Virus genome (UHGV): UHGV-0072939
DNA length: 55,033 nucleotides
Source: a virus
Direction: 5' to 3' (one strand)
A model generated the notes under the pieces. The model had not been told where the DNA came from. It saw only the letters and a program-made list of their open reading frames with translations, and did no database searches. A program made the position numbers and the translations under genes. Positions 1,036 through 52,171 of this stretch are shown here, in pieces; within the stretch, counting starts at the first letter, position 1, and each line of letters begins with the position of its first letter.

Positions 1036-1249
1036 ACACCTCTCATCAATACTGATTATACATACAGTAGTTTTAACGAGAGAGCAGATCAACCCCTGAT
1101 TTCTGGCTTTCCTGTAACCCGTTATGGGATGAAGATTTTTAGTTTTCCGGGGCAGCCGCTGGTAAACTGCGCGGCGGTTGCCAACGGCATGAACACCCGT
1201 CAACCAGCCGCAGCCCGCTCTGCATACGGCGGGGCTGCGGCGCCACAGT

Positions 1250-1446
1250 CTACTTCGCTACAGCCTCCTCTGGGTCAGGTTCAGCTGGCGCGATGAAGTT
1301 TTCACCATTCCACGCATAGCCTATAGATACTCCCCGCCCCTCGGCCAGGACAAGCTCAAGACCCTCTCCCGGATCATAATCGGTTATACCATCCCATTCG
1401 ATAACATTGACGACGAGACCATTTTGAACAACTGCGTAAATGCTCA
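1250..1446 (-). CDS. hypothetical small phage protein (65 aa); possibly a tail-fibre-assembly remnant
   Basis: internal ATG at 1446..1444 of the 149-aa ORF; the upstream part of that ORF overlaps the acyltransferase gene in another frame; function not recognised. Confidence 0.4.
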
Positions 1447-1509
1447 TATTTTCTCCATATATTAACGAAAAACCCAGCCGGAGCTGGGTTATAGAGCGTT
1501 TAGTTAACG

Positions 1510-25607: not shown

Positions 25608-26660
25608 TTATGTCTGGTTGAGCGCCTGCAGCTCGCTGACCGTCTGAATAAATCGCTCGGTCTCAAGCTCTACGCCGATCGCCCGGCGCCCAAGCTCCAT
25701 TGCCGCTTTCACGGTGGAACCCGAGCCCATAAAAAAATCGGCTACCGTGTCGCCCGGCCTGCTGCTGGCGCTGATAATCTGCCTGAGCATGTCAGCAGGT
25801 TTTTCGCAGGGATGCTTCCCCGGGTAAAACTGCACAGGCTTGTGGGTCCATACGTCGGTATACGGAACCGAGACGGATACAGAGAAACAGCGCCGGAGAG
25901 TTTTGTATTCCTCCAACAGCGCTGAATATTTCCGGTTGAGCGACTGGTATGTGCCCACCAGCTGGTGGTGTGGATGTTCAAGTTCCTGCCGCTGGTGCTT
26001 TTCTGCCGCGATGCGGGTGAACAGCTGCTGCAGCGTCAGGTAATCATTCTCGTTCGGTAACTGCCACTGGCTGGCGCTAAACCAGTGCGAGACCATATTC
26101 TTTTTGCCCGTGGCGTCGGCGATAGCTTTGCTCGTTACGCCAAGTGCCTCGCGGGCGTTGCGGAAATAGTCAATCAGCGGCGTCATGACATGCTGCTTGA
26201 GCTCGTTGCTTTTGCGGTCGTAACCGTCATCCTTCTCTTTGTATGGTCCCGTGTGATGTTCAGCAAAAAGAATACGCTCGGTTGCCGGGAAGTAAGCGCG
26301 AAGGCTTTCTTTATTACAGCCATTCCAGCGGCCAGAGGGCTTTGCCCAGATAATATGATTCAGGACGTTGAACCGCGCCCGCATCATGATTTCAATATCA
26401 GATGCCAGTCGATGCCCGGAGAACAGATACAGGCAGCCGGCTGGTTTAAGCACTCGCCAGAATTCCGCCAGACATCCGTCAAGCCAGAGCAGGTAGTCCT
26501 CATCCCCTTTCCACTGGTTGTCCCATCCGTCCGGTTTCACTTTGAAGTAAGGCGGATCGGTAACAATCAGGTCAATGGAGTTGTCCGGGAGAGAAGCGAT
26601 GAAATGCAGACAGTCAGCGTTGATTAACTCAACACTGTTTATTTTTACAGTATTTTTCAT
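25608..26660 (-). CDS. orphan DNA methyltransferase, amino-methyltransferase (N6-adenine or N4-cytosine) with DPPY motif
   Basis: 350 aa; DPPY near N-terminus and FFMGSGST (AdoMet-binding) near C-terminus, i.e. beta-class motif order; no adjacent restriction endonuclease gene. Confidence 0.8.
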   Translation of the reverse strand: MKNTVKINSVELINADCLHFIASLPDNSIDLIVTDPPYFKVKPDGWDNQWKGDEDYLLWLDGCLAEFWRVLKPAGCLYLFSGHRLASDIEIMMRARFNVLNHIIWAKPSGRWNGCNKESLRAYFPATERILFAEHHTGPYKEKDDGYDRKSNELKQHVMTPLIDYFRNAREALGVTSKAIADATGKKNMVSHWFSASQWQLPNENDYLTLQQLFTRIAAEKHQRQELEHPHHQLVGTYQSLNRKYSALLEEYKTLRRCFSVSVSVPYTDVWTHKPVQFYPGKHPCEKPADMLRQIISASSRPGDTVADFFMGSGSTVKAAMELGRRAIGVELETERFIQTVSELQALNQT

Positions 26661-27211: not shown

Positions 27212-28081
27212 GTGACCAATACTACTTCTTTTCAGATCTTCTATGATGCAGAAGATACTGAATTGGCACAGCATAAAATTGATGCAAAAACACTTAGCAT
27301 TTCCATAGGTTCTATGGCTGATTTGATTTCAGCCGCTGATAAACGGCTTAACGACGGTCAACAAACTGTGAAGTTGATGGTTACAAACCCGGCGGAGGCT
27401 GGCTCTCTCGGCGTATCCTATACGATGATGGAGCTTGTTCCGCATGCAATCAATGTTGCGAAAGTGATCGGATTGACAGGGTTAGCTGGCGCCGCAATTG
27501 GTGCACCTGCATTATCATTAATTCGACAGTTGGGAAGTAAGAAAGTCATTTCCATCACGAAACGAGCTGGTACAGACCAATCCGTTCTTGAGCTCGAAGG
27601 TGAAGAAATTGTTTGTCATGATTCTGTAGCCAAGCTAGTGACTGATCCAGAGATTAGGAATGCTTTAGTGAACGTAGTGCGAGCACCTTTAGACGGGAAA
27701 GAAGGCGCAGTGTTCAAAGTTCTGAATGAAGACGGTGTTGAAGTCGTGCGCTTGGAAGGTGAAGAAACTGAGGAAATAAAACCGCTTCCTAGGGGCACTT
27801 TGCTGGAAAAAGAAGAATCAGTGGAAGAAGTAAACGTAAGATTCGTCCAAATAAACTTCGAAGGAACAAAAGGTTGGAGGATTGAGTACCTCGGAGAGGA
27901 ACACGCTGTTTCGTTTGAGGATCAACTTTTTATACATCAAGTCCAAAATGGGATTGTTAGTTTCACCAAAGAAGATTTGTTTGTAGTTGACCTCAAAACA
28001 ACAAAAACTTTCACTGCACGTAATGCTTCAACCAAGTATGCTATAACCAGAGTTAAGCGAAAACGCCCTGCTGAGGCTTGA
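27212..28081 (+). CDS. hypothetical protein (289 aa), first gene of AT-rich three-gene operon
   Basis: long ORF; GTG at 27212 is the first in-frame start after a stop; a 10-codon upstream ORF (ATG 27180) ends TAG overlapping this GTG; no family recognised. Confidence 0.5.
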   Translation: MTNTTSFQIFYDAEDTELAQHKIDAKTLSISIGSMADLISAADKRLNDGQQTVKLMVTNPAEAGSLGVSYTMMELVPHAINVAKVIGLTGLAGAAIGAPALSLIRQLGSKKVISITKRAGTDQSVLELEGEEIVCHDSVAKLVTDPEIRNALVNVVRAPLDGKEGAVFKVLNEDGVEVVRLEGEETEEIKPLPRGTLLEKEESVEEVNVRFVQINFEGTKGWRIEYLGEEHAVSFEDQLFIHQVQNGIVSFTKEDLFVVDLKTTKTFTARNASTKYAITRVKRKRPAEA

Positions 28082-28137
28082 TTAACGTGGCATTAAACTT
28101 GCAAATAGCGCAACTGATCTTCTGGATAGGAGTGGTT

Positions 28138-28347
28138 ATGATCATTCCTACCTTTAGTCGTTTCTGCTATTCGGCATCTGCTTTGCTATGGCGTCGATTG
28201 TTTCCTACCAGGACCTTTGAGTTCCGGTATCACGATGAAGATACTGGTACAACTAAAACACTCATTGTTAAGGTACCAAGAAAAAACGGGAAAATGCTTA
28301 CCAGTCTTATTGATGAGGCTATTTCGGAGAATTCAAAACAAAAATGA
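28138..28347 (+). CDS. hypothetical small protein (69 aa)
   Basis: ATG 28138 with GGAG SD 7 nt upstream; stop TGA overlaps next ATG (ATGA). Confidence 0.45.
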   Translation: MIIPTFSRFCYSASALLWRRLFPTRTFEFRYHDEDTGTTKTLIVKVPRKNGKMLTSLIDEAISENSKQK

Positions 28348-28766
28348 GTTCTCAAAGTAAAGGGTTAAGTACTGGAAAAGCGACACTTTCCACTGGAGGT
28401 TGGGGAGCAATACTCAGCGTTTTAGTTGGTGCTGTTCTTACCGACCCCAACAGTGTGTGGAGGACGGTTGCTTATGCCCTAGTGCCAGGTGTTGCTGCTG
28501 TCCTTACCTACGTGATGAATTGGTTCATTTCTCGGCATGGGTTTGAATCACCAGAAGATGCAGCTAAACGAGCGAAGTGTAAACGCGATTTAGCAGAGAT
28601 CGAAAAACAGCTACGTTCAGAGCATTTAACCTCTGAAATTGAATCTAGGCTGATGCAGGCAAAGGCCAAGACAATTGAAATACTCGTTTCTATTGGCAGC
28701 GACTCAATCCTTGAGGCCTCATCACGTTCGAGCCAACTACCAGATACTGCCGGGCCCAAAGGCTGA
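28344..28766 (+). CDS. hypothetical membrane protein (140 aa, two predicted TM helices, charged C-terminal half)
   Basis: hydrophobic segments GGWGAILSVLVGAVL and VAYALVPGVAAVLTYVMNWFI; translationally coupled to upstream gene. Confidence 0.55.
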   Translation: MSSQSKGLSTGKATLSTGGWGAILSVLVGAVLTDPNSVWRTVAYALVPGVAAVLTYVMNWFISRHGFESPEDAAKRAKCKRDLAEIEKQLRSEHLTSEIESRLMQAKAKTIEILVSIGSDSILEASSRSSQLPDTAGPKG

Positions 28767-28788: not shown

Positions 28789-29154
28789 TCAATTATCCAT
28801 TTCAAGTCGAATATCAAGCATAGCCAAACATCCGTCTATAAATCCTTCTGCCATCTGCATCTCAATTCGGATCAATTTTTCGTCTTTTTTGCGCATCTTT
28901 GCAATCTTGCGTTTTGAAATGCCATAAAGGTAATGAGCTACCAGAAGAGAATGCTCATATGGCTTTCTTTTCTTTAATTGAGCCAAACACCCTTCAATGA
29001 TGAGAGCATCATCATCGGTACAGGACAATCGCGATTTACTACTCTGTGGCAAGAGCCCCTTAAACCCTGCCGCAATTGGTGAATAATCAACGCCAGAGTT
29101 GTCACTGGCCGCCCATCCTCCCCAGCATTCCAGGACTTTTTGCATATCACGCAT
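28789..29154 (-). CDS. late-gene antitermination protein Q-like
   Basis: 121 aa; position upstream of lysis genes; recalled Q-family resemblance. Confidence 0.6.
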   Translation of the reverse strand: MRDMQKVLECWGGWAASDNSGVDYSPIAAGFKGLLPQSSKSRLSCTDDDALIIEGCLAQLKKRKPYEHSLLVAHYLYGISKRKIAKMRKKDEKLIRIEMQMAEGFIDGCLAMLDIRLEMDN

Positions 29155-30943: not shown

Positions 30944-31330
30944 TCAGGCGGCTGCACCCGCCGGTTCGTATTGGCTGATCGTTATCTCAACCCTGCCTTT
31001 CGTCACCACTGGCCCCCACTCCACCAGCATGCGTTTTACCTGGCTGTCATCCTCCCACACGCCAGCATGTGTCAGCGCGTCAAACAGCGCTTTGTTGTAG
31101 TTGTCCAGATCCCGGCGGCGCGCGTCCGGCGGATACAGGGTGATTTCGACTGCAGCAGGCGCTGTTGATGGCTTCGGCAGCCTGCGCAGCTGCTCAATGA
31201 TCGCCGCGCAGGCCGCGCTCTGGTATTTGCGGCCGTCAGCACTGATAAGATGGCGCCCGGCCAGCGGCCCCTTGTTAGGGGCGCGCCAGTAGGTGTTAAC
31301 GCTCGGAGGAAACGGCAGCACCAGCTTCAT
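30944..31330 (-). CDS. rusA: Holliday junction resolvase RusA-like
   Basis: about 128 aa from ATG 31330 (MKLVLPFPPSVN...), characteristic RusA N-terminus and DxDN-containing core. Confidence 0.8.
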   Translation of the reverse strand: MKLVLPFPPSVNTYWRAPNKGPLAGRHLISADGRKYQSAACAAIIEQLRRLPKPSTAPAAVEITLYPPDARRRDLDNYNKALFDALTHAGVWEDDSQVKRMLVEWGPVVTKGRVEITISQYEPAGAAA

Positions 31331-33366
31331 GCCACCTCCCGCTGCGGATCCGCGCACATCTCAGGTAAGTTTGCCTCCACCAGCGCGCGGGCGAATGGTG
31401 GCGGGACGGCGTTGCCGCAGCGCGCGACCTGCTTATCCTTCGCGTAGCGGTTGCCCCGGTAGTCCTGATCGATAACGTAGCCATCCGGGAAGCCCTGGGC
31501 TTTGTACAACTCATGGGGCTGCAACATACGCATGCCGATATCAACAATCTGGTACTTAACACCCTCGATCGTCACCAGCCATTCGTCTTCGCTTTCCCCG
31601 CAGTAGGTTTCCAGGAATGTCCGAACCTCCCCTACATGCTGGCCGCCGGCGGTGATGGTTGGCATCGGTTCGTCCAGGCGCTGCCCGTCGCGGCATGTTC
31701 CCCTTAATTTGATTAGATGCGACGTCACCATCGCGCTATCAGCTTTTGTAGTCAGGGTTTGAATAGGCTCACTTACATCCCTAGGACGGCTCTGCCCGGC
31801 ACGACCGCCTACACCTACGACCTGTGCACTTACAAGTGCGTGGTGATCGACCGTCGTCACGGAGTGTGCTGGCTCATCCAGACCCACGCCCGGGCCCGTA
31901 TAATTCCCGCCGTAGTGCTTCGCCAGGAATGCGCTCACCGTTGCAAACTTATTGCCACCAGCGGTAACTGTGCCCAACGGGGTATCGATTTTCAGCACGT
32001 GCGGCTGCTGCCCCGGACGCTCACCGTAGCCCATCTGTATCAGGGTTGGTGTAACCAACTGGGATTTACCGCCACCACCCGCTGTGATGGTCGCACTCGG
32101 CTCATCCGCCCGGTGGCCGATACTGGCGCCGAACTGGCGGGCAATCACTGGCGTAACCAGGCAGGCGCGGGATTGCTTCAGGATAGTGTGGGCAGGCTTA
32201 TTCAGCGCGCGCGGCTTCGCCTGGTATTCGCTGCCGCCGTTGCCAGCCAGGAATGGTGTCAGCGCCGCCTCAACAACGCCTAGGGCATGACCATTCCCGC
32301 CCGGACGCGCCGATGTGCCAGCGGTCACCGTAGGAACCGGTTCGGTAACGGGTTGCCCGGTTGCGCCGGTGCGGAATTTAGTCAGGTGCGGTACCGCTAT
32401 CGCGTAGCCGTGGGTTTTGGTGATGGTCTGCAGCGGCGCGCCCAGCTCCTGACCACGAAAACAGTCATAGCTACCTTTCGTCGTGGTGTGGTTACATTTC
32501 ACGATGAACGGCGAGGCGCTCTCGATGACAAACCGCTGGATACCGCGCGCAATACGCTTCAGGGTATTTTCTGCCAGGGGCTTTTTGCGATCGAAGATAG
32601 AAAGCGCCGGGATATTCCAGTCGATACACTCCGCCGCGGTGCGCCACGGCGCCAGCCTGCCGCTCTGCACTTCCAGTGATTTCGGATCCCCGTGGGTCGG
32701 TTCAGGCCAGTGAATGGCTTTACCATCGCAGCGCATGACCATAAAGAAACGGCGACGGATTGTCGGCGCGCCATAGTCGCACGCGCGCAGCTCGCGATAA
32801 TCGACGTCATAGCCGAGCCCGGCAACCAGCTGTTGCGCCTGCCCGCTGCCAGGTTCAATAGAGAGAAATTCGCAGACCTCAGCCAGCGCCGGATGATCTG
32901 CCGGGATCCCCGTTGACAGCATAGCGACAAACGCCGTGAACGTTTCGCCAGCACGCGCAGGATCCGGGCGCATTTCGTCAGCCAGCAGCGGCCCCCACGT
33001 TTTAAACTCTTCGACGTTCTCCAGCATCATTACGCGTGGTCGCTTCGCCAGCGCCCAGCGGATAACTACCCACGCCAGCCCGCGGATTTCCTTCTTCACC
33101 GGCTTCGCGCCTTTCGCCTTTGAAAAATGGCGGCAGTCGGGGCTGAACCATGCCAGGCCAACAGGATGCGCGCCAGTGGCAGCAACCGGATCCACATCAA
33201 ACACCGATTCGCAGTAATGCAGCGTGTCGGGGTGGTTGGTCTTGTGCATGGCGATGGCGTTTTCGTCGTGGTTGATGGCAATATCCACGCTGCGCCCTAT
33301 GGCGAGTTCGATCCCGGTAGAGGCACCGCCGCCGCCGGCGAAGTTATCAACGATAATTTCACGCAC
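31327..33366 (-). CDS. DNA cytosine-5 methyltransferase with long C-terminal extension
   Basis: 679 aa; motif I FAGGGG, motif IV-like SPDCRHFS, motif VI ENV (MLENVEEF). Confidence 0.8.
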   Translation of the reverse strand: MREIIVDNFAGGGGASTGIELAIGRSVDIAINHDENAIAMHKTNHPDTLHYCESVFDVDPVAATGAHPVGLAWFSPDCRHFSKAKGAKPVKKEIRGLAWVVIRWALAKRPRVMMLENVEEFKTWGPLLADEMRPDPARAGETFTAFVAMLSTGIPADHPALAEVCEFLSIEPGSGQAQQLVAGLGYDVDYRELRACDYGAPTIRRRFFMVMRCDGKAIHWPEPTHGDPKSLEVQSGRLAPWRTAAECIDWNIPALSIFDRKKPLAENTLKRIARGIQRFVIESASPFIVKCNHTTTKGSYDCFRGQELGAPLQTITKTHGYAIAVPHLTKFRTGATGQPVTEPVPTVTAGTSARPGGNGHALGVVEAALTPFLAGNGGSEYQAKPRALNKPAHTILKQSRACLVTPVIARQFGASIGHRADEPSATITAGGGGKSQLVTPTLIQMGYGERPGQQPHVLKIDTPLGTVTAGGNKFATVSAFLAKHYGGNYTGPGVGLDEPAHSVTTVDHHALVSAQVVGVGGRAGQSRPRDVSEPIQTLTTKADSAMVTSHLIKLRGTCRDGQRLDEPMPTITAGGQHVGEVRTFLETYCGESEDEWLVTIEGVKYQIVDIGMRMLQPHELYKAQGFPDGYVIDQDYRGNRYAKDKQVARCGNAVPPPFARALVEANLPEMCADPQREVA

Positions 33367-34258
33367 TGGTCACCCCCTGTATGCTGCTGACCAGTCCACC
33401 AGCAACCGTTATGATTTCGCTGGTTGGCATACGCTCGAGCCACAGCTGGTTAATGTTCGCTTTCAGCTTGTTCTGCTGCGATGCATCCAGAGAATCCGCC
33501 CCCTCAACCTGGTTGAACACCAGACCAACCTCAAGCGGCCAGATACGCGAATCCACATCAGGTAATGCTGCTGGCGCTACAATGGGTTCTTCTTGCTCTG
33601 GCGCCGTGGTGGCTGGTGGCTGAACCTTACCCGCGGCAAATTCGACAAGCGCCATGAAAGCCTGGCCTTTAGCCTCCAGCTCTGTGCGGTGGATATAGCT
33701 GAAGCGCTCGCCGCGCCAGGTCTTGTCAAACACAGCGATGGCGCCCGCAAAAAATGCGCTGGTGGGCTGCTGCTTGTCGTCTACAGGTACAAACCATTCC
33801 GGAAGGTCAAAACCGATGCGACCGCGGATGAAAACAATGTGGTCTGCATCTTCCGGCCACCATGTTTCGCTTGGTGCTGCTTTGACCAGAAACACATAGC
33901 GACCGCCCTTCTCTCGCATGGCCATCGTGTGGTTAATGATGTGGGTCATCCCGGTGATTGCCTGCTTTTCGTGGTACTGCGATCGGCTGTATGGCGGGTT
34001 AGCAAACGCGGCGCCGCCGAGTTCCGCCAGGCGCTCAGACCAGTCCTGCGTCAGCGCGTTGTCTTCTGCGGTATACCAGGCAGGGCATTTAGCGTTGCTG
34101 TCGTCGGCAAAGAGGTCCAGCACCAGCGGGCCAAACATCGCATTAATCCCCCAGAACAGCAGCTCCGGCGTGCGCCACTGATCGCCAACTTCTTTCAGCT
34201 TGTGAGCGTTCCTGCTGCGCATTTCCGCCAGCGCCTGGCAGTATTTATTTTCATTCAT
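33359..34258 (-). CDS. phage Dam-type N6-adenine DNA methyltransferase with extra C-terminal domain
   Basis: 299 aa; FANPPYS motif and N-terminal WRTP...DLFA pattern of phage N6A-MTases. Confidence 0.75.
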   Translation of the reverse strand: MNENKYCQALAEMRSRNAHKLKEVGDQWRTPELLFWGINAMFGPLVLDLFADDSNAKCPAWYTAEDNALTQDWSERLAELGGAAFANPPYSRSQYHEKQAITGMTHIINHTMAMREKGGRYVFLVKAAPSETWWPEDADHIVFIRGRIGFDLPEWFVPVDDKQQPTSAFFAGAIAVFDKTWRGERFSYIHRTELEAKGQAFMALVEFAAGKVQPPATTAPEQEEPIVAPAALPDVDSRIWPLEVGLVFNQVEGADSLDASQQNKLKANINQLWLERMPTSEIITVAGGLVSSIQGVTSA

Positions 34259-35115
34259 CCCCTGAACCCCTCAGGAATCTTGGTATCAACTGGCCCGAAC
34301 TTCACAGGATCATGCTTACGAGCTGCATCCCAGTACTGGCGCTCCGGGCGGCCTTTGCTATCCCAGCGGGTAGCGCTGGACAGGTACCCTTCGAACTTTT
34401 TCGGCCCAAACAGGGTTTCAGGACGCATGTACTGGTACTGCTCATCGTTGCCGTTCCAGTGCTCGTGCTTCAGGTCAATAACCAGCTTCAGGTCATTGAC
34501 GCTGTAACCTTCCCGCAGACGGGCGCGGATGTTTTCCAGCGAGGTCCTTGATTTCTGGTAGCGCGATCCGCTGACCTGGTTCAGATGGAGCAAAACTTCA
34601 ATCGCATGGTCAGTAATCACCACTTCCGGGTCGGGTTGCGCAGCAACCGGACAAGAAGGTTTTTTATTTACTGATGGATCAGTAGTTGTATTTACTGACG
34701 GATCCCCGCCAGATCCTGACGGGTGAAAACGCCCCTTTTTGCCGGATTCTGATGCATCAGATTTTGACGGGTCAGATTTTGATGCGTCAGAATTTGACGT
34801 GTCAGAATCTGACAGGTGAGAAAAGGCCGCAGCCTGAAGCTTTGCCACATTCAGCTGGTAAACGTTTGAAGCATTGCGGTTACCGTTGCGGCGTTGTTTG
34901 CGTGACAACCAGCCCTCCTGCTCAAGCTTACCGATGGCGGTACGTACGGTGCTTTCCCCCGCCCCTATCTGCCGGGCAATGGTCCCGATAGACGGCCAGC
35001 ACACGCCCTCGTCACTGCTGAAGTCGGCCAGGCGCGCCATGATGGCAACGCTGGACAGCTTCATGCCAGAAGCGGCGCAAGCGTCCCATACGTAGCCGGT
35101 TAATTTAGTGCTCAT
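34255..35115 (-). CDS. replication initiation protein (lambda O-like role), ori iterons inside the gene
   Basis: 286 aa; N-terminal winged-helix-like region, low-complexity SD-rich linker encoded by iteron-like repeats, conserved C-terminal phage replication domain. Confidence 0.7.
   Translation of the reverse strand: MSTKLTGYVWDACAASGMKLSSVAIMARLADFSSDEGVCWPSIGTIARQIGAGESTVRTAIGKLEQEGWLSRKQRRNGNRNASNVYQLNVAKLQAAAFSHLSDSDTSNSDASKSDPSKSDASESGKKGRFHPSGSGGDPSVNTTTDPSVNKKPSCPVAAQPDPEVVITDHAIEVLLHLNQVSGSRYQKSRTSLENIRARLREGYSVNDLKLVIDLKHEHWNGNDEQYQYMRPETLFGPKKFEGYLSSATRWDSKGRPERQYWDAARKHDPVKFGPVDTKIPEGFRG
34667..34818. repeat. iteron-like direct repeats (about eight copies of a 15-bp unit with core CTGA(C/T)G); candidate replication origin
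   Basis: tandem units TCAGATTTTGACGGG / TCAGATTTTGATGCG / TCAGAATTTGACGTG / TCAGAATCTGACAGG read directly at 34758-34818, with further copies upstream to 34667. Confidence 0.55.
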
Positions 35116-36054: not shown

Positions 36055-36252
36055 TTAAGCGACTGTCTGATTAGACTTTTGATAAAGAACGGAGCTGTAC
36101 TTGAGCTTTCCTTTCGTGATCCGCTCAATCACAAAAGCTTGCTTCTCGGGGATGATCTCCCCCCATCGACAAACTGCTGGATGGGAAATACCTAATGCAT
36201 TAGCAGTTTTGGCTACTCCGCCGAAGTGCTCTATGACTTCAGATTTGCGCAT
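36055..36252 (-). CDS. Cro-like HTH repressor
   Basis: 65 aa, AGGAGG SD, HTH (VAKTANALGISHPAVCRW); divergent from the cI-like gene. Confidence 0.7.
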   Translation of the reverse strand: MRKSEVIEHFGGVAKTANALGISHPAVCRWGEIIPEKQAFVIERITKGKLKYSSVLYQKSNQTVA

Positions 36253-36277: not shown

Positions 36278-36348
36278 CACAAGGTAACAAAAGGTACATT
36301 AAATAGCAAACAACAGTTACCATCAAAAGAGGTAACATTGGTTACATG
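36278..36348. promoter_or_regulatory. operator-like AGGTA direct-repeat pairs in the cro/cI intergenic region (OR-like)
   Basis: AAGGTAACAAAAGGTACATT and GAGGTAACATTGGTTACATG read directly; same unit recurs downstream of cI. Confidence 0.45.
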
Positions 36349-37005
36349 AAAACAGAGATGAAAGACCGTATTCGTTCGCGTCGAGTCCAGCTCGATATGA
36401 CTCAGCTTACCCTTGCCAAAAAGCTTGGGGTCAGTCGCGTGTCTGTAACGAAATGGGAGAATGGAACAACGAAGCCGGATGGTGAGAATTTACACCAACT
36501 TGCTGGTGTACTTCAGGTAACCCCGGAATGGATTCTCTATGGCAAAGGAGATGCTGACGTTGATGATATCAAATTAGTCCCCTTCCTTAAGCCGCCAACA
36601 GCAGTGCCTATTATATCAGCCGTTCAGGCTGGTTTATGGACAGAAACCTACGCCAGTTCAAGGCTTACAGACGTGATTGCATGGACACAAACTACAGCTA
36701 ATGTATCTGATGAGGTTTTCGGGTTAGTGGTCCGCGGAGAGTCAATGACTAACCCTCATGGATTGCCATCAATTCCAGAAGGTTCCATTGTTATCGTTGA
36801 ACCACATTTCGGGCAAATTGATGATCTTTACGGGAAAATAGTCGTTGCCACACTGGAAGGCTCTACCGAAGCGACTGTAAAAAAATTAGTGTGGGATAGC
36901 CCATTCGCCTATCTCATGCCACTTAACCCAGCTTTCAAGCCTATCCAAATTGACGGAAACTGCCGAATTGTCGGCAAAGTCGTCCAAATAACCCAGAACA
37001 TTTAA
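36346..37005 (+). CDS. CI-like prophage repressor (HTH plus S24 peptidase domain)
   Basis: 219 aa; N-terminal HTH (LTQLTLAKKLGVSRVSVTKWENG), C-terminal GESM...K (VVRGESMTNP, KKL) LexA-type autocleavage domain. Confidence 0.85.
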   Translation: MKTEMKDRIRSRRVQLDMTQLTLAKKLGVSRVSVTKWENGTTKPDGENLHQLAGVLQVTPEWILYGKGDADVDDIKLVPFLKPPTAVPIISAVQAGLWTETYASSRLTDVIAWTQTTANVSDEVFGLVVRGESMTNPHGLPSIPEGSIVIVEPHFGQIDDLYGKIVVATLEGSTEATVKKLVWDSPFAYLMPLNPAFKPIQIDGNCRIVGKVVQITQNI

Positions 37006-37109: not shown

Positions 37110-37847
37110 CAATCCATCAACAGCGAACAGGCAGGACGCCCACGAAGTAGCCGCCGGTGGCATACGAAAAACCGGATGATTCGCTGACAGGTGTCTTCGG
37201 GAGGGGTAACAGGGTCGCGGCCTGATTAACCGCTACTCGTAGTCAAATTCCTACAGCTGGTGGCGATACCCAAGCCAGGAATACCTAAAACCAGCAGGGA
37301 GTGTTAAGGACAAGGGCTAATCATCCCCCTTAGCACCCCGCCCGAAGATCCCTGTTATTGCCAACGACCCTTTCTGGCGGCCCGTGTTTTCCCTTATGTC
37401 CGCGGTCACCGCCAGCTTTTTCAGGGCACAACATGCAAGCGCATTCTATCTAACATCGGTCGTGGGGACTGGTTTGTAACTGAAAGAGTGCGCTTCCAGT
37501 TGTGATGTGCTCAAGCGAGCTGCAGCGCCGGCCGACGCAAAGACCTGTGAATCGGCTTAGCCGCAGTTTCTGGCGGCCAATACCAAAACAGAGCGGCAGG
37601 AAGTAAGCGGGTTAGCGACCCGGTGTCACAACGTTCAATCCCGATAAGCACCCTTGCGAGGATGTTTATCGGGACTGGAAGAGTTACCACTTGGAGACGG
37701 TCCTTATAAATGTCCTGGGAAGTGGCGCTTTGGTCGCGATAACAACCACTCCAGTTGATCCTGGGAGTTATCAGGTCAGTGAGCTGCCAGCACTCTCGAC
37801 GGCAGTGACGGCGGGAAGTAGACCGCTGACAGCTGGGAAAGACCAGC

Positions 37848-37936
37848 ACACAACAGATAAGAGCATCGCCGGGCGACGGGCTCATAACCCAACCCACCCG
37901 GGCGGTTGCAGCCGCAGGTGCTCTTATCTGTTGTGT
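37848..37936 (+). other. perfect 18-bp inverted repeat (ACACAACAGATAAGAGCA / TGCTCTTATCTGTTGTGT) with 53-bp GC-rich spacer in a long untranslated leader
   Basis: read directly; right arm contains boxA-like TGCTCTTA; lies ~50 nt upstream of the first early ORF. Confidence 0.6.
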
Positions 37937-37985
37937 ATGGAGATAACTTACTGGCGGTGGCAGCCGCCGTTACGAGGGTAAACCG

Positions 37986-38357
37986 ATGAGCAATGATCGC
38001 ATGACCATAGTGCCCGATTTCCTGGGCGAACTGGATGCCGGGGTGTTCATGAACAAAATCGCGGCAGCTTTAAACACCACCGCGCTTGGTGTTCTGAATA
38101 ACGGCAGCAAAGGCAAAGTAGTCCTCACCTTTGACTTTGAGCGTATGGGTAACTCCGTCGAGGAGAAGCGCGTCAAGATCAAGCACAAGCTGAACTACAG
38201 CACCCCAACTCCGCGCGGTAAAGCCTCCGAAGAAGACACCACCGAAACACCTATGTGGGTTAACAAAGGTGGCAAGCTGACCATCCTGCAGGAAGATCAG
38301 GGGCAGTTGTTCGGGATCAACGGCGGCGTTGACGGAAAGCTTAAAGCGGCACAGTGA
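37986..38357 (+). CDS. hypothetical early protein (123 aa)
   Basis: GAGGGT SD before ATG 37986; first gene of rightward early operon. Confidence 0.4.
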   Translation: MSNDRMTIVPDFLGELDAGVFMNKIAAALNTTALGVLNNGSKGKVVLTFDFERMGNSVEEKRVKIKHKLNYSTPTPRGKASEEDTTETPMWVNKGGKLTILQEDQGQLFGINGGVDGKLKAAQ

Positions 38358-38410
38358 TCCGCAGCAGACAAATCACTGACATCACTTTGACCACATATTA
38401 AGGAAATTTT

Positions 38411-39241
38411 ATGTCCCAGATTTTAGACGGCAATGCCCTGCAGCAGGTGAAAGACCTGGTTCTTTCCGGTTACCACCTGACTGCTGTTAAAGAAACGGCA
38501 TGCCCTACCGCCCTTCTCCCTGAAGGCGTAAACGTTGAAAGCCTCGAGCGTTTCGACCTGGAGCGTTTTCGTTTCCGCGGCGCCATGACCACAACCAGCA
38601 TTCCTGATTTTGTGCGTTATGCGGCTGGCTACGCCAACGAGGCCGAACCAGCGCGCTGCTTTATCGATGCTGACAACATGACCGCACGCTCCGTCTTTAA
38701 TATCGGTACGCTGGCTAACCCAGGCCATGCTGATAACGTCGCCTCTATCACCCTCAAAAAGACAGCACCATACCGAGCCCTGCTCCAGATTAACGGTGAT
38801 CGTCTGGGTCAGAAAGAAATAGCTGAGTGGCTGGAAGACTGGGCCGACTACCTCACCGCATTTGATGCCGACGGGAATGTATTGTCCATCGCGCAAGCAG
38901 CTGGTGCTGTTCGCCGCGTCAACATTAAACAAGTCTCAGAAGCAGCTCATGAAGACGAAGACTTTGGCGGCAGAAAGTCCCTGATGCAGAGCGTTGAAGC
39001 CAGCAGCAAAGACGTCATGCCGGTGGCCTTTGAGTTCAAATGCGTGCCATATGAAGGCCTGGGCGAACGCCGCTTTAGTCTGCGCAATAGCCTGCTCAAA
39101 AGTGGGGAACCGATATTTGTGCTGCGCATTGTTCAACTGGAAGCCCAGGAAGAAGCTATCGCCAATGAGTTCCGAGATCTGCTGATCGAGAAATTCACCG
39201 ATAAGCCGGTAGAAACCTTCATCGGTAATTTCAAAGCGTAA
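38411..39241 (+). CDS. YfdQ/DUF2303-like early protein
   Basis: 276 aa; recalled resemblance to CPS-53 prophage YfdQ; followed by HD-domain gene as in that prophage. Confidence 0.45.
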   Translation: MSQILDGNALQQVKDLVLSGYHLTAVKETACPTALLPEGVNVESLERFDLERFRFRGAMTTTSIPDFVRYAAGYANEAEPARCFIDADNMTARSVFNIGTLANPGHADNVASITLKKTAPYRALLQINGDRLGQKEIAEWLEDWADYLTAFDADGNVLSIAQAAGAVRRVNIKQVSEAAHEDEDFGGRKSLMQSVEASSKDVMPVAFEFKCVPYEGLGERRFSLRNSLLKSGEPIFVLRIVQLEAQEEAIANEFRDLLIEKFTDKPVETFIGNFKA

Positions 39242-39377
39242 TTGCATTGCCTTAATTGCCCTGCGCGCCGGGGCAATTAGTGAAGCGTAATTCCGTTAAT
39301 TATCGCCACCTGGCGAGGGATTCGCATACCCAAAAACAGCCGCAGGTGCAGCTGCGAAAATATGGAGAAGTACAGCG

Positions 39378-39917
39378 ATGAGCTATATCCAGACACTTTC
39401 TGGCAAGCATTTTGACTACATCAACGCCACCACTGACGATATTGATATCGAAGATATCGCCAACGCGCTTTCTAATATCTGTCGCTTCGCCGGCCACCTG
39501 CCGGAGTTCTACAGCGTCGCCCAGCACTCTGTGCTAGCCAGCCAGATTGTACCGCCTGAGCTTGCCCTGGAAGCGCTGCTGCACGATGCGGCGGAAGCCT
39601 ACTGCCAGGACATTCCGGCGCCGCTGAAAGCCCTGCTGCCGGATTACCGCCGCATTGAAACGGAGGTGGATGACTTGATCCGCAGCAAGTTCAACCTCCC
39701 GATGCACCAGACGGACGTGGTGAAGTATGCCGACCTGATGATGCTGGCCACTGAGCGGCGCGACCTCGAGATCGATGACGGGTCAGTGTGGCCCTGCCTC
39801 GAGGGTATCCCCTGCTCCGATATCGTGCAGATTGTCCCGCTGCGACCGGGCCAGGCGTTTGGTCTTTTCATGAATCGCTTTAACGAGCTGATGGAGATCC
39901 GCAAATGCGCCGCCTGA
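39378..39917 (+). CDS. HD-domain phosphohydrolase (YfdR-like 5'-deoxynucleotidase)
   Basis: 179 aa; H...HD...D metal-binding pattern (AQHSV, LLHDAAEAY). Confidence 0.6.
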   Translation: MSYIQTLSGKHFDYINATTDDIDIEDIANALSNICRFAGHLPEFYSVAQHSVLASQIVPPELALEALLHDAAEAYCQDIPAPLKALLPDYRRIETEVDDLIRSKFNLPMHQTDVVKYADLMMLATERRDLEIDDGSVWPCLEGIPCSDIVQIVPLRPGQAFGLFMNRFNELMEIRKCAA

Positions 39918-40120
39918 AGGTGAAAGAACTTGTCACAGAGGCGCATGCCGCTGTGCCGGGACTACCACCAGCTACAGCAGCGCTGATGCGCGAGATGGCG
40001 ACCAGACTCGATGTCACCTTTACAGCATTGACCGAGTTGATGGATCAGCGGGTGGCGCTTATGGCTGAAATCGAATGTCTGCGTGACAGCAGCAGCGTTA
40101 GTAAGGAGCGTGCAGCGTGA
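39905..40120 (+). CDS. hypothetical small protein (71 aa)
   Basis: ORF overlapping neighbours by a few nt; no family recognised. Confidence 0.35.
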   Translation: MRRLKVKELVTEAHAAVPGLPPATAALMREMATRLDVTFTALTELMDQRVALMAEIECLRDSSSVSKERAA

Positions 40121-40944
40121 CAGTTCATACATTAAGACAATGTCGTCCAGACCAGGAAGAGACAGAGTATTTCTGGAAACTTTTTCATGCTGCGCAGCGT
40201 AATGATGCTCGTTGGCACGGCAGTGAAATCGGCTTTATTGCTGAAGAACTTTCCCGCACGGATTTGGACCGCAACCAGAAGCTCTTTCTCCTGCGCGCCT
40301 GGCAGGTGCTCGTCGATGATAAAGGCGGGTTTGGGCGCTTTATGGGGGCGTTCGATACCTATGTGTTCAATATGCAGGATCCTGATGATGACTGCGTAGC
40401 GTGGAAACCTGAACTGAGCAAGCTGCTACAGGACGGTGATCTGCTGGATGTTGTGCTGGAGGCATATACCGAAGCGCAACGGCGCATCGCCGAGTTGGAA
40501 GCCAGAACGCTGGCAGTGAAGCTGCTAGATGAGTTTTACACCATCGCCGAAAATATCCACACTCAGGACAACCGGATCACTTCAGACCCGATGTTTTGCG
40601 TATACCAAAAGCGTGAAATTGTTGTCGATGCAGACTACGACTATGACCGCATTGTATGGGTTGATGAAGAAGGCAATGAAGCCAGCCCGCACCAGAGCGC
40701 GCGTCTTGAATTACTCCATGAAAACTTTCGCGAGCCGCCTGAAAAATGGCGCAGAATTGCGGTGAAAGAGATTGATGATTTCGTTACCTGCTGCTTTACC
40801 GAGCAGGGTTGCAAAGACTACTTGGCGTGCAATGGCCATAATCTTCGCCTGCCATTTATCTACGTAAAAAGCGGATTCAGGAATGCTGAATACATCGGCC
40901 TTCGAAACTGGTTAGCTGGCATCACTGTAAGCGAGGGAGAGTGA
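40117..40944 (+). CDS. hypothetical early protein (275 aa)
   Basis: ORF with ATGA-type coupling; no family recognised. Confidence 0.4.
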   Translation: MTVHTLRQCRPDQEETEYFWKLFHAAQRNDARWHGSEIGFIAEELSRTDLDRNQKLFLLRAWQVLVDDKGGFGRFMGAFDTYVFNMQDPDDDCVAWKPELSKLLQDGDLLDVVLEAYTEAQRRIAELEARTLAVKLLDEFYTIAENIHTQDNRITSDPMFCVYQKREIVVDADYDYDRIVWVDEEGNEASPHQSARLELLHENFREPPEKWRRIAVKEIDDFVTCCFTEQGCKDYLACNGHNLRLPFIYVKSGFRNAEYIGLRNWLAGITVSEGE

Positions 40945-40945
40945 T

Positions 40946-41365
40946 ATGGCTCTGACCAAAAAACAGCGTGCAGAATTGCGAATGAAGTTCGGCGGTCGCT
41001 GCGCTTATTGTGGTTGCGAATTGCCGGAAAAGGGCTGGCACGCCGATCACGTAGAAGCTGCGTTACGGAAATGGGAATTTGGGGACCGCCAGGCCAATGG
41101 AACACGCCGCACAGTTGCCACTGGAGAATTCTGGAAGCCTGAGAACGATTCTCTAGAAAACCTTTTCCCGGCCTGCGCCCCCTGCAATTTGTTTAAGGCT
41201 ACTTTCAGCATCGCACTATTCCGCCATGAGATAGCGCAGCAGGCGGAGCGTGCCCGCGCATACAGCGTCAATTTCCGCACAGCTGAACGTTTTGGCCTGG
41301 TTGAAGTGATAGAAAAGCCAGTTGTGTTCTGGTTCGAACGGTATCAGGAAGGAGTGCCAGCATGA
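40946..41365 (+). CDS. HNH endonuclease
   Basis: 139 aa; CxxC ... HADH ... CAPCN zinc/HNH motif arrangement. Confidence 0.7.
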   Translation: MALTKKQRAELRMKFGGRCAYCGCELPEKGWHADHVEAALRKWEFGDRQANGTRRTVATGEFWKPENDSLENLFPACAPCNLFKATFSIALFRHEIAQQAERARAYSVNFRTAERFGLVEVIEKPVVFWFERYQEGVPA

Positions 41366-41859
41366 CCAATAACAACCTGACAGAAGAAGAGTTGAACGGC
41401 CTCGCCGAAGAAATGCAGCTGTGCGCCAACCGCTGCCGACACCAGGGCTTGGAGGGTAACGCGCGGGAGTATGACCAAATTATTTGTGCCCTGCGCGAGC
41501 TTCAGCAGCGCCGGAAAGCTGATGAGCTGTCGATCCAGACAGCGCCAGCGCTGTATTCTTTATCAAAAACAGGCGAAGTGCGCTGTAGCAACTATCCGGT
41601 AATTCCGGATGGATACTGCATCATGCCTGTAACGCTGACTGCGGAGAATGGCGCGAAACGTGCTTTATCTGGTGAGTTCAGCATACCCCGTTCCGTTACT
41701 TGTCCTGAGTGTGGCGGCGACGGTTGCAGTGATTGTGATGGGCGCGGCGACTGGAATGAGGATCAGATCATTGACTGGCCGACAATAAAACTCATCTACC
41801 AAAAAGCAGTAGAAGCATGCGCAATAGCCGCAACACAGAAACAGGATAAATCAGCATGA
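41362..41859 (+). CDS. hypothetical Cys-rich protein (CPECGGDGCSDCDGRG zinc-ribbon-like)
   Basis: 165 aa; CxxCxGxG repeats. Confidence 0.4.
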   Translation: MTNNNLTEEELNGLAEEMQLCANRCRHQGLEGNAREYDQIICALRELQQRRKADELSIQTAPALYSLSKTGEVRCSNYPVIPDGYCIMPVTLTAENGAKRALSGEFSIPRSVTCPECGGDGCSDCDGRGDWNEDQIIDWPTIKLIYQKAVEACAIAATQKQDKSA

Positions 41860-42425
41860 ACCACTTAATGATCGACCTCGAAACCATGGGTAACAAGCCA
41901 AAGGCGCCAATTGTCTCCATCGGTGCCGTGTTGTTTGACCCGCAGAGCGGCGCGCTGGGCGAAGAGTTTTACACGGCCGTGCAGCTCGAAAGTGCAATGG
42001 TACAAGGCGCGGTTCCTGACGGTGACACCATCATCTGGTGGATGAAGCAAAGCCCGGAAGCCAGAGCAGCGATTTGCGCTGATGATGCTATGCCTGTAGA
42101 TGCAGCGCTTTCCGAGTTGAGCCACTTCATCAACCGTCACGCGGACAACCCGAAATATTTGAAGGTGTGGGGCAATGGCGCAAACTTCGACAACGTCATT
42201 ATTCGAGGCGCGTACGAGCGTGCCGGCCATATTTGCCCCTGGCAATTCTGGAACGATCAGGACGTGCGCACGATGGTGACCCTCGGTCGCGCTATTGGCT
42301 TCGACCCGAAGCGGGATATGCCGTTTGATGGTGAGGTGCATAACGCGCTGGCCGACGCCCGCCACCAGGCCAAATATGTTTCTGCTATCTGGCAGCGACT
42401 GGTGCCCACCAGCACCGAAGAGTAA
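41856..42425 (+). CDS. DEDDh-type 3'-5' exonuclease
   Basis: 189 aa; IDLETMG (exo I) and HNALADA (exo III) motifs. Confidence 0.75.
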   Translation: MNHLMIDLETMGNKPKAPIVSIGAVLFDPQSGALGEEFYTAVQLESAMVQGAVPDGDTIIWWMKQSPEARAAICADDAMPVDAALSELSHFINRHADNPKYLKVWGNGANFDNVIIRGAYERAGHICPWQFWNDQDVRTMVTLGRAIGFDPKRDMPFDGEVHNALADARHQAKYVSAIWQRLVPTSTEE

Positions 42426-42467
42426 AGGTAAATGCCCGGGTGCAGCCGGGCTGTGTGGAGAAACTAC

Positions 42468-42839
42468 ATGACCAAGTTGATCAACAAAAAAGTATGCGCC
42501 CTTACCGGACGACAGCGACAAGTTCTGGACTTTGTTACCCAGTACATCGCCAGTCACGGTATGCCACCCACTAAATCTGAAATCGCTGTCGGGATGGGAT
42601 TTTGCTCGACAAATGCAGCTGTTGAACACTTACGCGCATTGGAGAAGAAAGGCTTCATAGAGATACGTACTGGTGTTTCGCGCGGGATCATGCCTGTAGC
42701 AAAGCGAGAAATATCGCTACCATCCACCAGCAATGAAGATTACTGGTTTGATGGCACTTTTCAGCATCGGCGCTATGAGCGTGATATATGCAAAGCAGTT
42801 GAAGCGATGGGATTAAAGGTTTTGGGGGGTGGATCATGA
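42468..42839 (+). CDS. LexA N-terminal DNA-binding-domain homologue lacking the peptidase domain
   Basis: about 123 aa from ATG 42468 (GGAG SD); LTGRQRQVLDFVTQYIASHGMPPTKSEIAVGMGFCSTNAAVEHLRALEKKGFIEIRTGVSRGI closely parallels the LexA winged-helix domain; no GDSM/KR domain follows. Confidence 0.7.
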   Translation: MTKLINKKVCALTGRQRQVLDFVTQYIASHGMPPTKSEIAVGMGFCSTNAAVEHLRALEKKGFIEIRTGVSRGIMPVAKREISLPSTSNEDYWFDGTFQHRRYERDICKAVEAMGLKVLGGGS

Positions 42840-43045
42840 ATCTTGAATGCGTACCCATATCAACTTACTGCCGTGACTCCGGCGAGACCGTAGAAGCTGT
42901 TAATAAACGGATACAAAGGGGATTATGGCAGGAAGGGGTCCATATATTAAAGATCGATGGCGTAAAAGAGCGCTGGATTGATTTAACTGAGGTCACGAAA
43001 TGGGCGAGAAAAAACAAGGATCCTTACAGCTCCCACGCGGTATAA
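42836..43045 (+). CDS. excisionase-like protein
   Basis: 69 aa immediately upstream of and overlapping the integrase gene. Confidence 0.5.
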   Translation: MNLECVPISTYCRDSGETVEAVNKRIQRGLWQEGVHILKIDGVKERWIDLTEVTKWARKNKDPYSSHAV

Positions 43046-44175
43046 CCGCGCGCCATCATAAGAACGGCTCAACACTTATTATCACGTTCACATATAAAGG
43101 GGTTCTATGCCGGGAACCCCTTTCCCGTATCGAGCTGAATCCAAAGGGTATAAAATATGCAGAACGCCTCCTGGGAGAGGTTCAGAACAGAATTGCGGAG
43201 GGTGATTTCGATTATGCCAAATACTTCCCAAAATCTAAGAAGTTGGATATTTTTGGGAAAGTTAACCGGACAAAAAACATCAAGTCTTATCTCGATGAAT
43301 ATCTGGAGATCTGCGCAAATCGAAACTTATCGCCATCGACAATTGGAGGGTATGAAAAATGCCTCTCAGCTCTGTCTGATTTACATAAACTACACGTCGC
43401 CGAGCTTACACCGGCAGTATTGAAAAACTGGATCGCCAGCCGGAAAACAAAGCTTAAAACGATACGAAACAACCTCTCATTTTTGCGTAGCGCAATCGAT
43501 GAGGCAGTGACTGATGGGCTGTTGACGATAAACCCGGTTACGCTTGTCAGCGCCAGCCGGTACCACGTGATCGACAGCACGCCGAACCCCGACGATTACG
43601 AGGTGGATCCGTTCACACCTGCAGAGGCCAGCGCCATTTACATGCACTGCAGGTTTCAGGAATGGGAAAACCTGTTCCGCTTTGCATTTAACACCGGGAT
43701 GCGTAGTTCTGAACTGTGCGCGTTGCGCTGGCCTGATATCGACTTTATCGAGAATACTGCTCACGTTCAGGCAGCCAGCGTTGTCGGTGTGCTGAAGGGT
43801 ACCAAGACAAAAGCTGGTACCCGTAAAGTCGAGCTGAATAGCGATGCGCTGTCGGCGCTGCAGGCGCAAAAGCCATTCACCTTTATGAAGAGCGATTTCA
43901 TCTTCAGCGATCCTAAAACAGAGAAACCATGGGCAAACGCTGATGCGATTCGAAAAAAGGCCTGGGTCCCCACGTTGAAGAAAGCAGGAGTTCGGTACCG
44001 AAACCCATATCAAACACGCCATACGTTCGCTACGCGCCACATCAGCCAAGGCGTTAACCTTTTCTGGTTGGCCGGGCAAATGGGGCACAAAGGACCGGAA
44101 ATGTTGTTCCGTCACTATGGTTCCTACCTGGCTGCTTATGATGGGAAAACGGCAATTGAAGCGAGGAAATTTTGA
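43000..44175 (+). CDS. tyrosine integrase (lambda Int family)
   Basis: 391 aa; C-terminal catalytic region with R...HTFATRH...Y pattern (RHTFATRH, HYGSY). Confidence 0.9.
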   Translation: MGEKKQGSLQLPRGITARHHKNGSTLIITFTYKGVLCREPLSRIELNPKGIKYAERLLGEVQNRIAEGDFDYAKYFPKSKKLDIFGKVNRTKNIKSYLDEYLEICANRNLSPSTIGGYEKCLSALSDLHKLHVAELTPAVLKNWIASRKTKLKTIRNNLSFLRSAIDEAVTDGLLTINPVTLVSASRYHVIDSTPNPDDYEVDPFTPAEASAIYMHCRFQEWENLFRFAFNTGMRSSELCALRWPDIDFIENTAHVQAASVVGVLKGTKTKAGTRKVELNSDALSALQAQKPFTFMKSDFIFSDPKTEKPWANADAIRKKAWVPTLKKAGVRYRNPYQTRHTFATRHISQGVNLFWLAGQMGHKGPEMLFRHYGSYLAAYDGKTAIEARKF

Positions 44176-49060: not shown

Positions 49061-49429
49061 AAATTTCATCCTCTGAAAAGTGAATACTGAGTAGCGTTTA
49101 AGCGACCTTAGCTTTGCTGCAACATCAGCCCACAGGCACCAGACCAGGGGATTCATCCTGAAGAGACAGCGCAAGTGTATTGTGTTCACCGCTCATCAAA
49201 GACATCATGATGAAATGATGATATTCCGCATAAGAATGAGGCATTTTTTAAACGCAGTGCGCTGAAGTGTGGTTGGATAAAAAAGTCAATCCATTCAGGA
49301 AATACGGGCGTATTCTTTTCTTTCGACAATGAGGCCGTTGGCAAAATAAAATGATTTACATAATCGTTTCTGATGAATATCTTCTGCTCACATAAAAATC
49401 ACACAATAACTTTGAGATCGCAGATTGTT

Positions 49430-52095: not shown

Positions 52096-52171
52096 TGGTG
52101 GCCCTTGCTGGACTTGAACCAGCGACCAAGCGATTATGAGTCGCCTGCTCTAACCACTGAGCTAAAGGGCC
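52096..52171 (-). tRNA. ileY: tRNA with anticodon CAU, tRNA-Ile2 (lysidine) type
   Basis: reverse complement GGCCCTTTAGCTCAGTGGTTAGAGCAGGCGACTCATAATCGCTTGGTCGCTGGTTCAAGTCCAGCAAGGGCCACCA folds as a cloverleaf with GGTTCAAGTCC T-arm and CAU anticodon; matches recalled ileX/ileY. Confidence 0.9.

Follow-up and report, generated by a model that had tools for sequence, protein, structure and literature searches.

Two overlapping genes for DNA methyltransferases (MTases) in the virus genome UHGV-0072939, of which a stretch of 55,033 nucleotides (nt) was analyzed here (the window), raise the question of what such a pair does for a phage and why one of its products is so long. The genes encode a C5-cytosine MTase of 679 amino acids (aa) and an N6-adenine MTase of 299 aa, and both lie in the early-right operon of a lambdoid prophage. 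An initial annotation had described them as two orphan phage MTases, which is supported by hidden Markov model (HMM) scores above the curated cutoffs, intact motifs, and a confidently predicted fold of the C5 core. It had also attributed a long C-terminal extension to the C5 enzyme. This did not hold, as motifs IX and X are located at the very C-terminus and the extra length is internal, between motifs VIII and IX. The internal region comprises an array of eight modules resembling target-recognition domains (TRDs), which had been missed in the initial annotation and is the new finding reported here. Our best overall reading is that the C5 enzyme may act as a multispecific anti-restriction MTase during lytic growth only, to which we assign a probability of roughly 0.5.

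The C5-cytosine MTase gene (31327..33366) is located on the minus strand, like all motifs and units of its product given below, and starts with GTG. Its open reading frame (ORF), defined by the ORF list, Pfam, PHROG, and same-length homologs, is full length, as homologs of the same length share 92% identity with it. The Pfam model PF00145 (DNA_methylase) matched in three separate stretches (E = 1.3e-20, 74.5 bits, cutoff 22), and the PHROG families 116 and 23072 are both described as 'DNA methyltransferase'. The N-terminal part of the catalytic core (aa 1–290; 32497..33366), delimited by motifs, AlphaFold2 (AF2), Foldseek, and family conservation, includes motif I FAGGGG (aa 9–14; 33325-33342), motif IV SPDC with PDC at aa 76–78 and the cysteine at position 78 (33133-33141), motif VI ENV (aa 116–118; 33013-33021), and motif VIII PTIRRRFF (aa 201–208; 32743-32766; GAPTIRRRFF in PDB alignments). 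The FAGGGG, PDC, and ENV sequences listed in the initial annotation could thus all be located. The C-terminal part of the core (aa 598–676; 31339..31575) was placed by AF2 and by PDB alignments to DNMT1/MET1 and 3g7u. It contains motif IX RMLQPHE (aa 613–619; 31510-31530; RMLQPHELYKAQGFPDGY) and motif X GNAV (aa 651–654; 31405-31416; GNAVPPP), which together span aa 613–663 in alignments to solved structures.

Motifs I, IV, VI, VIII, IX, and X are all present and conserved across the family, with VI, VIII, IX, and X in the canonical order, and a check for degenerate catalytic motifs found none, the cysteine of motif IV being in place. AF2 predicted the N-terminal part of the core with predicted local distance difference test (pLDDT) values mostly above 90, and the C-terminal part with values of 84–97. 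Foldseek matched the core to 3g7u, DNMT1/MET1, M.HaeIII, and M.HhaI, with a probability of 1.00 for 3g7u, DNMT1, M.HaeIII, and M.HhaI. By these measures the catalytic core appears normal and complete, and the enzyme is predicted to be active. The PDC form of motif IV had been pointed out as unusual. It is indeed present and differs from PPC or PCQ, but an alignment of 149 diverse homologs revealed it to be the family norm: P76 and C78 do not vary, D77, H80, and S82 reach a conservation of at least 90%, and so do F9, G11, and G13 of motif I. This conservation ruled out PDC as a degenerate motif, and SPDCxHFS represents the family's own form of motif IV.

In C5-MTases, the variable region between motifs VIII and IX is the site of the TRD. 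The term 'variable region' is used in that TRD-bearing sense for C5-MTases in PMC12707154. In the window enzyme, an insert of approximately 300 aa is located at this position. The motif P..T[ILV][TL] was found eight times in it (aa 311, 343, 391, 423, 463, 499, 534, and 567; spacing 32–48 aa), each time opening a unit of about 30–45 aa. The resulting array of eight tandem TRD-like units (aa 303–588; 31603..32460) was defined by motif scan, unit HMM, and comparison with homologs. For the unit HMM, 757 units of other family members were used and the query was left out; it detected eight domains in the query with scores of 11.5–31.3 bits, compared to 6.0 bits for the best of 500 shuffles of the region. 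From the N-terminus, these are unit 1 (aa 303–333; 32368..32460; APLQTITKTHGY), unit 2 (aa 336–369; 32260..32361; EPVPTVTAGTSARPGGNGH), unit 3 (aa 385–413; 32128..32214; KPAHTILKQSRACLV), unit 4 (aa 415–443; 32038..32124; EPSATITAGGGGKSQLV), unit 5 (aa 460–486; 31909..31989; TPLGTVTAGGNKFATV), unit 6 (aa 492–520; 31807..31893; EPAHSVTTVDHHALV), unit 7 (aa 526–556; 31699..31791; EPIQTLTTKADSAMV), and unit 8 (aa 560–588; 31603..31689; EPMPTITAGGQHVGEV).

The eight units have little in common beyond the short motif, with BLOSUM self-scores of 106–120 and cross-scores of −34 to +39. At the DNA level, 36-nt matches at the motif-coding sites were merely 61–72% identical, and Tandem Repeats Finder detected no repeat at the unit period and only two short repeats (periods 11 and 8, approximately two copies each). 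A recent tandem duplication of the units was excluded by these two results. The DNA repeats are weak and confined to the motif-coding sites, so the array is old. In most family members, a conserved terminal unit, EPLxT[IV]xxKDRFGLVT, closes the array just before motif IX, e.g., in phage phiNP (L002:2238-3965). The window protein does not have this terminal unit and carries ESEDEWLVTIEG there instead.

Close homologs are separated by gains and losses of whole units of 35–45 aa. In the phiNP homolog, a block of 45 aa equivalent to unit 2 is missing. The 39-aa unit 5 is missing from homologs P0015 and P0108 and from phiNP, and the 35-aa unit 7 is missing from P0009, P0014, P0074, phiNP, and an E. 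coli chromosomal copy (L001). P0066, in turn, carries an additional 37-aa unit following unit 3. Units 1–8 are complete in 90 of 120 close homologs; 16 of the 120 are without unit 6/7, and 7 of the 120 are without unit 5.

The wider family is large. Searching a database clustered at 90% identity returned 8,000 word-sharing matches, and those with a named source among the matches listed (77–92% identical) came from Klebsiella, Raoultella, Enterobacter, Kluyvera, Citrobacter, Trabulsiella, Salmonella, and E. coli. Clustering at 50% identity revealed at least 2,559 clusters at E ≤ 1e-30, with lengths of 403–1113 aa among 150 listed. In the phage collection, 351 records matched the C5 MTase, including enterobacterial, Pseudomonas, Vibrio, Ralstonia, Myxococcus, Gordonia, and Mycobacterium phages. 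No experimental characterization was found for any member of the family. Two divergent members were also found in phage early operons, with no match to a restriction endonuclease family. A further member is P0176 (835 aa, 12 units), whose gene immediately follows those for a DUF4942 protein and a UvrD-type helicase (L008:1697-7508); the contig is phage-like, and the gene context is unlike a lambdoid nin region.

All 150 representatives at 50% identity contain at least one unit, and the number per protein ranges from 1 to 12 with a mode of 6–7. Units were compared by best-match and average-linkage analyses; single linkage at 50% identity merged nearly all of them into one cluster. Over 22 non-motif positions, the best match of a unit inside its own protein had a median identity of 0.27, and the best match in another distant representative had a median identity of 0.59. 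Of 933 units, 99% were closer to a unit of another protein than to any unit of their own. Distant proteins thus share conserved unit types, and the units of a single protein have not been homogenized. About 35 unit types recur at least five times, and the eight types of the window enzyme account for 181 of 927 units. The order of units is mostly collinear among homologs, with types 4, 5, and 6 seen in both orders.

The position of the array in the TRD region, the T[ILV] signature in each unit, the distinct and conserved unit types, and the gain, loss, and shuffling of whole modules are the reasons why we liken the C5 enzyme to multispecific MTases. Each module, or a small group of modules, would dock with the single catalytic core, and each docked module would present a different DNA sequence, which would render the C5 enzyme multispecific. 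Judged from the sequence, we regard it as an even chance that the array confers multispecificity.

When such an enzyme would act can be deduced from its genomic neighborhood. On the minus strand, the genes are ordered cro, a cII-like gene, a small ORF, the replication initiator, the adenine MTase, the C5 MTase, rusA, an Ant/Rha antirepressor gene, a DUF968 gene, and Q. The operon starts with cro (36055..36252; Pfam P22_Cro, 3.3e-23) and ends with the antiterminator gene Q (28789..29154; Pfam Phage_antitermQ, 2.2e-53). The cII-like gene is located at 36128-35460 (minus strand), and the replication-initiation gene (34255..35115, minus strand) has the Pfam domains HTH_36/DnaD_N and Phg_2220_C. 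On the plus strand, divergent from cro, lies a gene for a CI-type repressor with HTH_3 and Peptidase_S24 domains (36346..37005). The integrase gene is located at 43000-44175. Relatives of the prophage include Citrobacter phage phiNP and Escherichia phages LLS, Eeyore, and Flotzy, and the overlapping pair of adenine and C5 MTase genes recurs in phiNP and in one E. coli chromosome.

The MTase genes are closely interlocked with their neighbors. The stop codon of the replication-initiation gene overlaps the ATG of the adenine MTase gene (dam) within ATGA, the dam stop codon overlaps the C5 GTG within an 8-nt overlap of the two ORFs (GTGCGTGA), and the C5 stop codon overlaps the likely ATG of rusA, again within ATGA. 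The rusA gene for a Holliday-junction resolvase (30944..31330, minus strand) was defined by Pfam (RusA, 1.7e-17) and by the junction sequence. In the mechanical ORF list, rusA (30944-31357, minus strand) is given a GTG start at 31357, which falls within the C5 gene; the ATG at 31330, which yields MKLVLPFPPS and overlaps the C5 stop codon, is the likelier start. These overlaps indicate that the adenine and C5 MTase genes are translationally coupled to each other as well as to the replication-initiation gene and rusA. A promoter scan upstream of the two MTase genes revealed no promoter-like site above chance. Since both genes lie inside the repressor-controlled early-right operon, are translationally coupled, and have no promoter-like site of their own, they should be silent in the lysogen and be made only after induction or infection.

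The initial annotation had counted three MTases in the prophage and no recognizable restriction endonuclease, which holds for the approximately 25 ORFs scanned: no restriction endonuclease model matched in these non-structural prophage ORFs (Pfam or PADLOC), several small ORFs among them matching no family. Within the ORFs scanned, all three MTases thus appear to be orphans. As functions, protection against restriction and epigenetic regulation of the host had both been suggested. The former is the better explanation, as predicted lytic-only expression favors anti-restriction over host epigenetic regulation, which is disfavored by the position in a repressor-controlled operon. Prophage MTases that are silent in lysogens and harmful when expressed have been reported with M.EcoGII and M.BatI (PMC5778455, PMC8936443). 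We propose that the adenine and C5 MTases would be co-translated from the early-right (nin-type) operon after induction or infection, and that replicating phage DNA would be methylated before packaging and survive restriction in the next host. An orphan, lytic-cycle anti-restriction role of the two MTases is, in our estimation, highly probable.

The adenine MTase gene (33359..34258, minus strand) starts with ATG, and the earlier description of its product as an overlapping 299-aa N6-adenine MTase with an NPPY motif was borne out. The protein was matched by the Pfam model PF05869 (Dam; 7e-44, 149.9 bits, cutoff 28.1) and by the NCBIfam equivalog TIGR01712 'phage N-6-adenine-methyltransferase' (202.7 bits, cutoff 97). 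It consists of an N-terminal MTase domain (aa 16–200; 33659-34213) with NPPY at aa 87–90 (33989-34000), a variable linker, and a conserved C-terminal domain of 64 aa (33362-33553) that is kept across a 155-aa indel in an E. coli homolog. This homolog from E. coli MSB1_9D (L001:4522-5856) comprises 444 aa and has the 155-aa insertion between the MTase domain and the 64-aa C-terminal domain. In the phage collection, 443 records matched the adenine MTase, with 87% identity for ST64B; SfII 'dam', mEp460, and Stx2c phages are approximately 70% identical over aa 1–212. Among related phage genes, the annotation 'phosphoadenosine phosphosulfate reductase' (phrog_33262), or a fusion to a gene of that name, is frequent. 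Within the PF05869 phage 'Dam' family, the 299-aa enzyme is unremarkable. Its initial designation as 'Dam-type' is justified as a family assignment (PF05869/TIGR01712) and does not extend to GATC as its target. The MTase from the nin region of VT2-Sakai, presumably M.EcoVT2Dam, shares 42% identity with the 299-aa enzyme over only 66 aa. M.EcoVT2Dam is reported to target GATC (PMC6602927); a transfer of this specificity to the 299-aa enzyme was dropped because the VT2-Sakai gene is too distant.

Several results weigh against a multispecific, lytic-only C5 enzyme. In AF2 models of the window protein (149-sequence alignment) and of a 478-aa homolog (96 sequences), the array reached a pLDDT of only 30–60, so that the fold of the units and their docking to the core are unsupported. 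Applied to proven TRDs, the unit HMM scored 0.5 bits for SPbeta MtbP and did not match E. coli Dcm, and the variable region matched no PDB sequence even at E ≤ 10; the units are accordingly not taken to be homologs of proven TRDs. The units have a hydrophobic pattern in common (..aLV.aFL.KYYG..), which fits a purely structural repeat too. The lytic-only timing is deduced from gene order. Lastly, motif IV, with the context SPDCRHFS, deviates from that of 3g7u by Asp in place of the Pro before Cys and by His in place of Gln. In a rival reading, the C5 enzyme would recognize a single site or a short relaxed site, and the units would form one extended structural or DNA-binding repeat domain, e.g., a clamp or spacer, with only the unit nearest motif IX as the TRD core. 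The shared hydrophobic pattern and fairly uniform length of the units, the tolerated loss of units in natural variants, the lack of detectable homology to proven TRDs, and the absence of independent domain folds in AF2 all suit such a repeat domain. Structural repeats, however, usually homogenize within a protein or drift freely, whereas here the units differ within a protein (0.27) and are conserved between proteins (0.59), which indicates selection on type-specific residues. Furthermore, the array is located exactly at the TRD position, and each unit has the T[ILV] signature of a TRD core. We therefore consider a structural array rather unlikely; if it applied, the locus would be an ordinary pair of phage orphan MTases.

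The deviating motif IV raises the additional question of whether the C5 product is catalytically dead, or acts elsewhere than on C5 of cytosine in DNA, given that it has PDC instead of PC(Q). Asp for the Pro of Pro-Cys and His for Gln could be read in this way, but SPDCxHFS is at least 90% conserved in the 149 diverse homologs of a family with at least 2,559 clusters, which points to purifying selection on a working site. In addition, Cys78, the Glu of ENV, the arginines of motif VIII, and motif I for S-adenosylmethionine are intact, and the ORF is of the same full length as its 92% identical homologs. A dead or redirected enzyme is accordingly very improbable. Some prophage MTases alter host phenotypes, for which a prophage MTase of community-associated methicillin-resistant Staphylococcus aureus is an example (PMC12435837), and expression of the two window MTases in the lysogen as epigenetic regulators of host genes is thus conceivable. 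Both genes are, however, contained in the operon from cro to Q and coupled to the replication-initiation gene and rusA, with no promoter-like site above chance upstream, and we regard such a regulatory role as improbable. Multispecific protection of phage DNA during lytic growth hence remains our preferred reading.

Extended to the whole family, this reading would describe a very large clade, ranging from Proteobacteria to actinobacteriophages and comprising at least 2,559 clusters at 50% identity, with combinatorial arrays of 1–12 interchangeable recognition modules of approximately 35 aa, drawn from dozens of conserved types. The window enzyme with its eight modules would then be the most multispecific DNA methyltransferase known, a one-protein master key against Type II restriction, and the family would constitute a natural library of minimal and portable modules for DNA recognition. 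We put this forward tentatively, at somewhat less than even odds. If the modules work as TRDs, multispecific cytosine methylation would be a widespread phage counter-defense and not an oddity of Bacillus phages, carried by prophages of Klebsiella, Enterobacter, Salmonella, and E. coli, and overlooked largely because PacBio sequencing reads 5-methylcytosine (5mC) poorly (PMC8936443). It would affect how phage host range, and the barriers that restriction sets up in clinical Enterobacteriaceae, are predicted, as well as how 5mC motifs are read when nanopore methylomes come from induced cultures, and it would bear on the targets of 5mC-dependent (Type IV) restriction. The modules of approximately 35 aa would also be candidates for engineering MTase specificity.

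The third orphan MTase is a protein of 350 aa encoded between Q and the lysis genes (25608..26660, minus strand). It corresponds to the DPPY enzyme of the initial annotation and belongs to the beta-class N6-adenine/N4-cytosine type (PF01555, 2.7e-42), with DPPY near the N-terminus (26547-26558, minus strand) and FMGSGS near the C-terminus (25716-25733, minus strand). Its best PDB matches are 9c3u/8urk and M.RsrI, and it is 82–84% identical to MTases of phiNP, SfV, cdtI, mEp460, and Stx2c phages.

Regarding other features of the window, three genes of low GC content (approximately 43%) form a block (27212-28766, plus strand) that separates Q from the third MTase gene, runs on the strand opposite to them, and has the appearance of a moron. 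The first of the three (27212-28081; 289 aa) was matched by the PADLOC candidate defense family PDC-S42 at 2e-31 and by no Pfam model. A small early-left ORF (40946-41365, plus strand) showed a weak PADLOC match to PtuB, the HNH nuclease component of Septu (E = 1.4e-4), and several ORFs near it (37511-42629) match no family. Immediately outside the integrase gene, a gene for a 1569-aa autotransporter adhesin of the AIDA/pertactin type was found (44480-49189, minus strand), and beyond it lies a region of low GC content (34–44%) with a tRNA-Met at 52096-52171. The other end of the window also consists of low-GC DNA (413-2628, minus strand), with genes for an Acyl_transf_3 acyltransferase (1510-2628) and an S24 peptidase of the UmuD/LexA-like type (413-919), both on the minus strand.

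Compared to known systems, the third MTase resembles the non-specific adenine MTases M.EcoGII and M.EcoGI, with which it shares the beta class, an N-terminal DPPY, and a C-terminal FxGxG (PMC5778455). M.EcoGII comprises 349 aa compared to 350 aa in the third MTase, and both occur in enterobacterial lambdoid prophages and Stx2c-type phages (PMC5778455); the likeness is one of class, length, and prophage setting. The 299-aa adenine enzyme shares motif I followed by NPPY with the PF05869/TIGR01712 phage Dam types (T1, HP1, and VT2), and its gene is located in the nin region beside replication genes, as in VT2-Sakai; the 175-aa VT2-Sakai enzyme, in contrast, has neither the variable linker nor the 64-aa C-terminal domain. 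For the C5 enzyme, the best match in sequence and fold among solved structures is the MTase of prophage CP-933R from E. coli O157 (3g7u), which is likewise a prophage-encoded orphan C5-MTase. Unlike the window enzyme, 3g7u comprises 376 aa, with a variable region of conventional length and PPCQ as motif IV.

The closest parallel in layout is found in Bacillus. Multispecific C5 MTases have been described as an anti-restriction device of phages, in which one polypeptide shields phage DNA from many restriction-modification systems (PMC12707154), and M.BssHII and the B. cereus prophage enzyme M.BceSV are mentioned as further multispecific examples (PMC7653180, PMC11347163, PMC3592412). Our literature search for multi-TRD or multispecific C5 MTases in enterobacterial prophages found none, the examples being from Bacillus alone. 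M.SPRI, M.Phi3TI, M.Rho11sI, M.H2I, M.SPbetaI/MtbP, M.BssHII, and M.BceSV are orphan and phage-borne and have one C5 core, like the window enzyme. Again like the window enzyme, they carry short T[LIV] modules in tandem between motifs VIII and IX, and the module content varies among related phages. The variable region of SPbeta MtbP, for instance, contains SPTLTTMGGG, AVLTPE, and EPAFTVNTIDRHG at distances of roughly 25–45 aa, which is the same kind of layout (xPxxT[LV]T). A similarity between EPAHSVTTVDHHAL in unit 6 and EPAFTVNTIDRHGV in SPbeta MtbP was rejected as not significant (E = 0.074) and too weak for predicting specificity. Between the window C5 enzyme and SPbeta MtbP, similarity is confined to the core (BLASTP E = 0.001 over motif VIII), with the aforementioned 0.5 bits for the unit HMM, and SPDCxH as motif IV sets the window enzyme apart from the Bacillus enzymes. 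We therefore do not place it as a member of the Bacillus multispecific family; the likeness stops at the layout. Multispecificity is proven for the Bacillus enzymes, and the window enzyme is a candidate. Their hosts differ as well, with Bacillus for the known enzymes, Enterobacteriaceae for the window enzyme, and Proteobacteria and actinobacteriophages for its wider family. The Bacillus multispecific enzymes carry 2–5 TRDs. With 8 units in the window enzyme and up to 12 in its family, the arrays described here are much longer.

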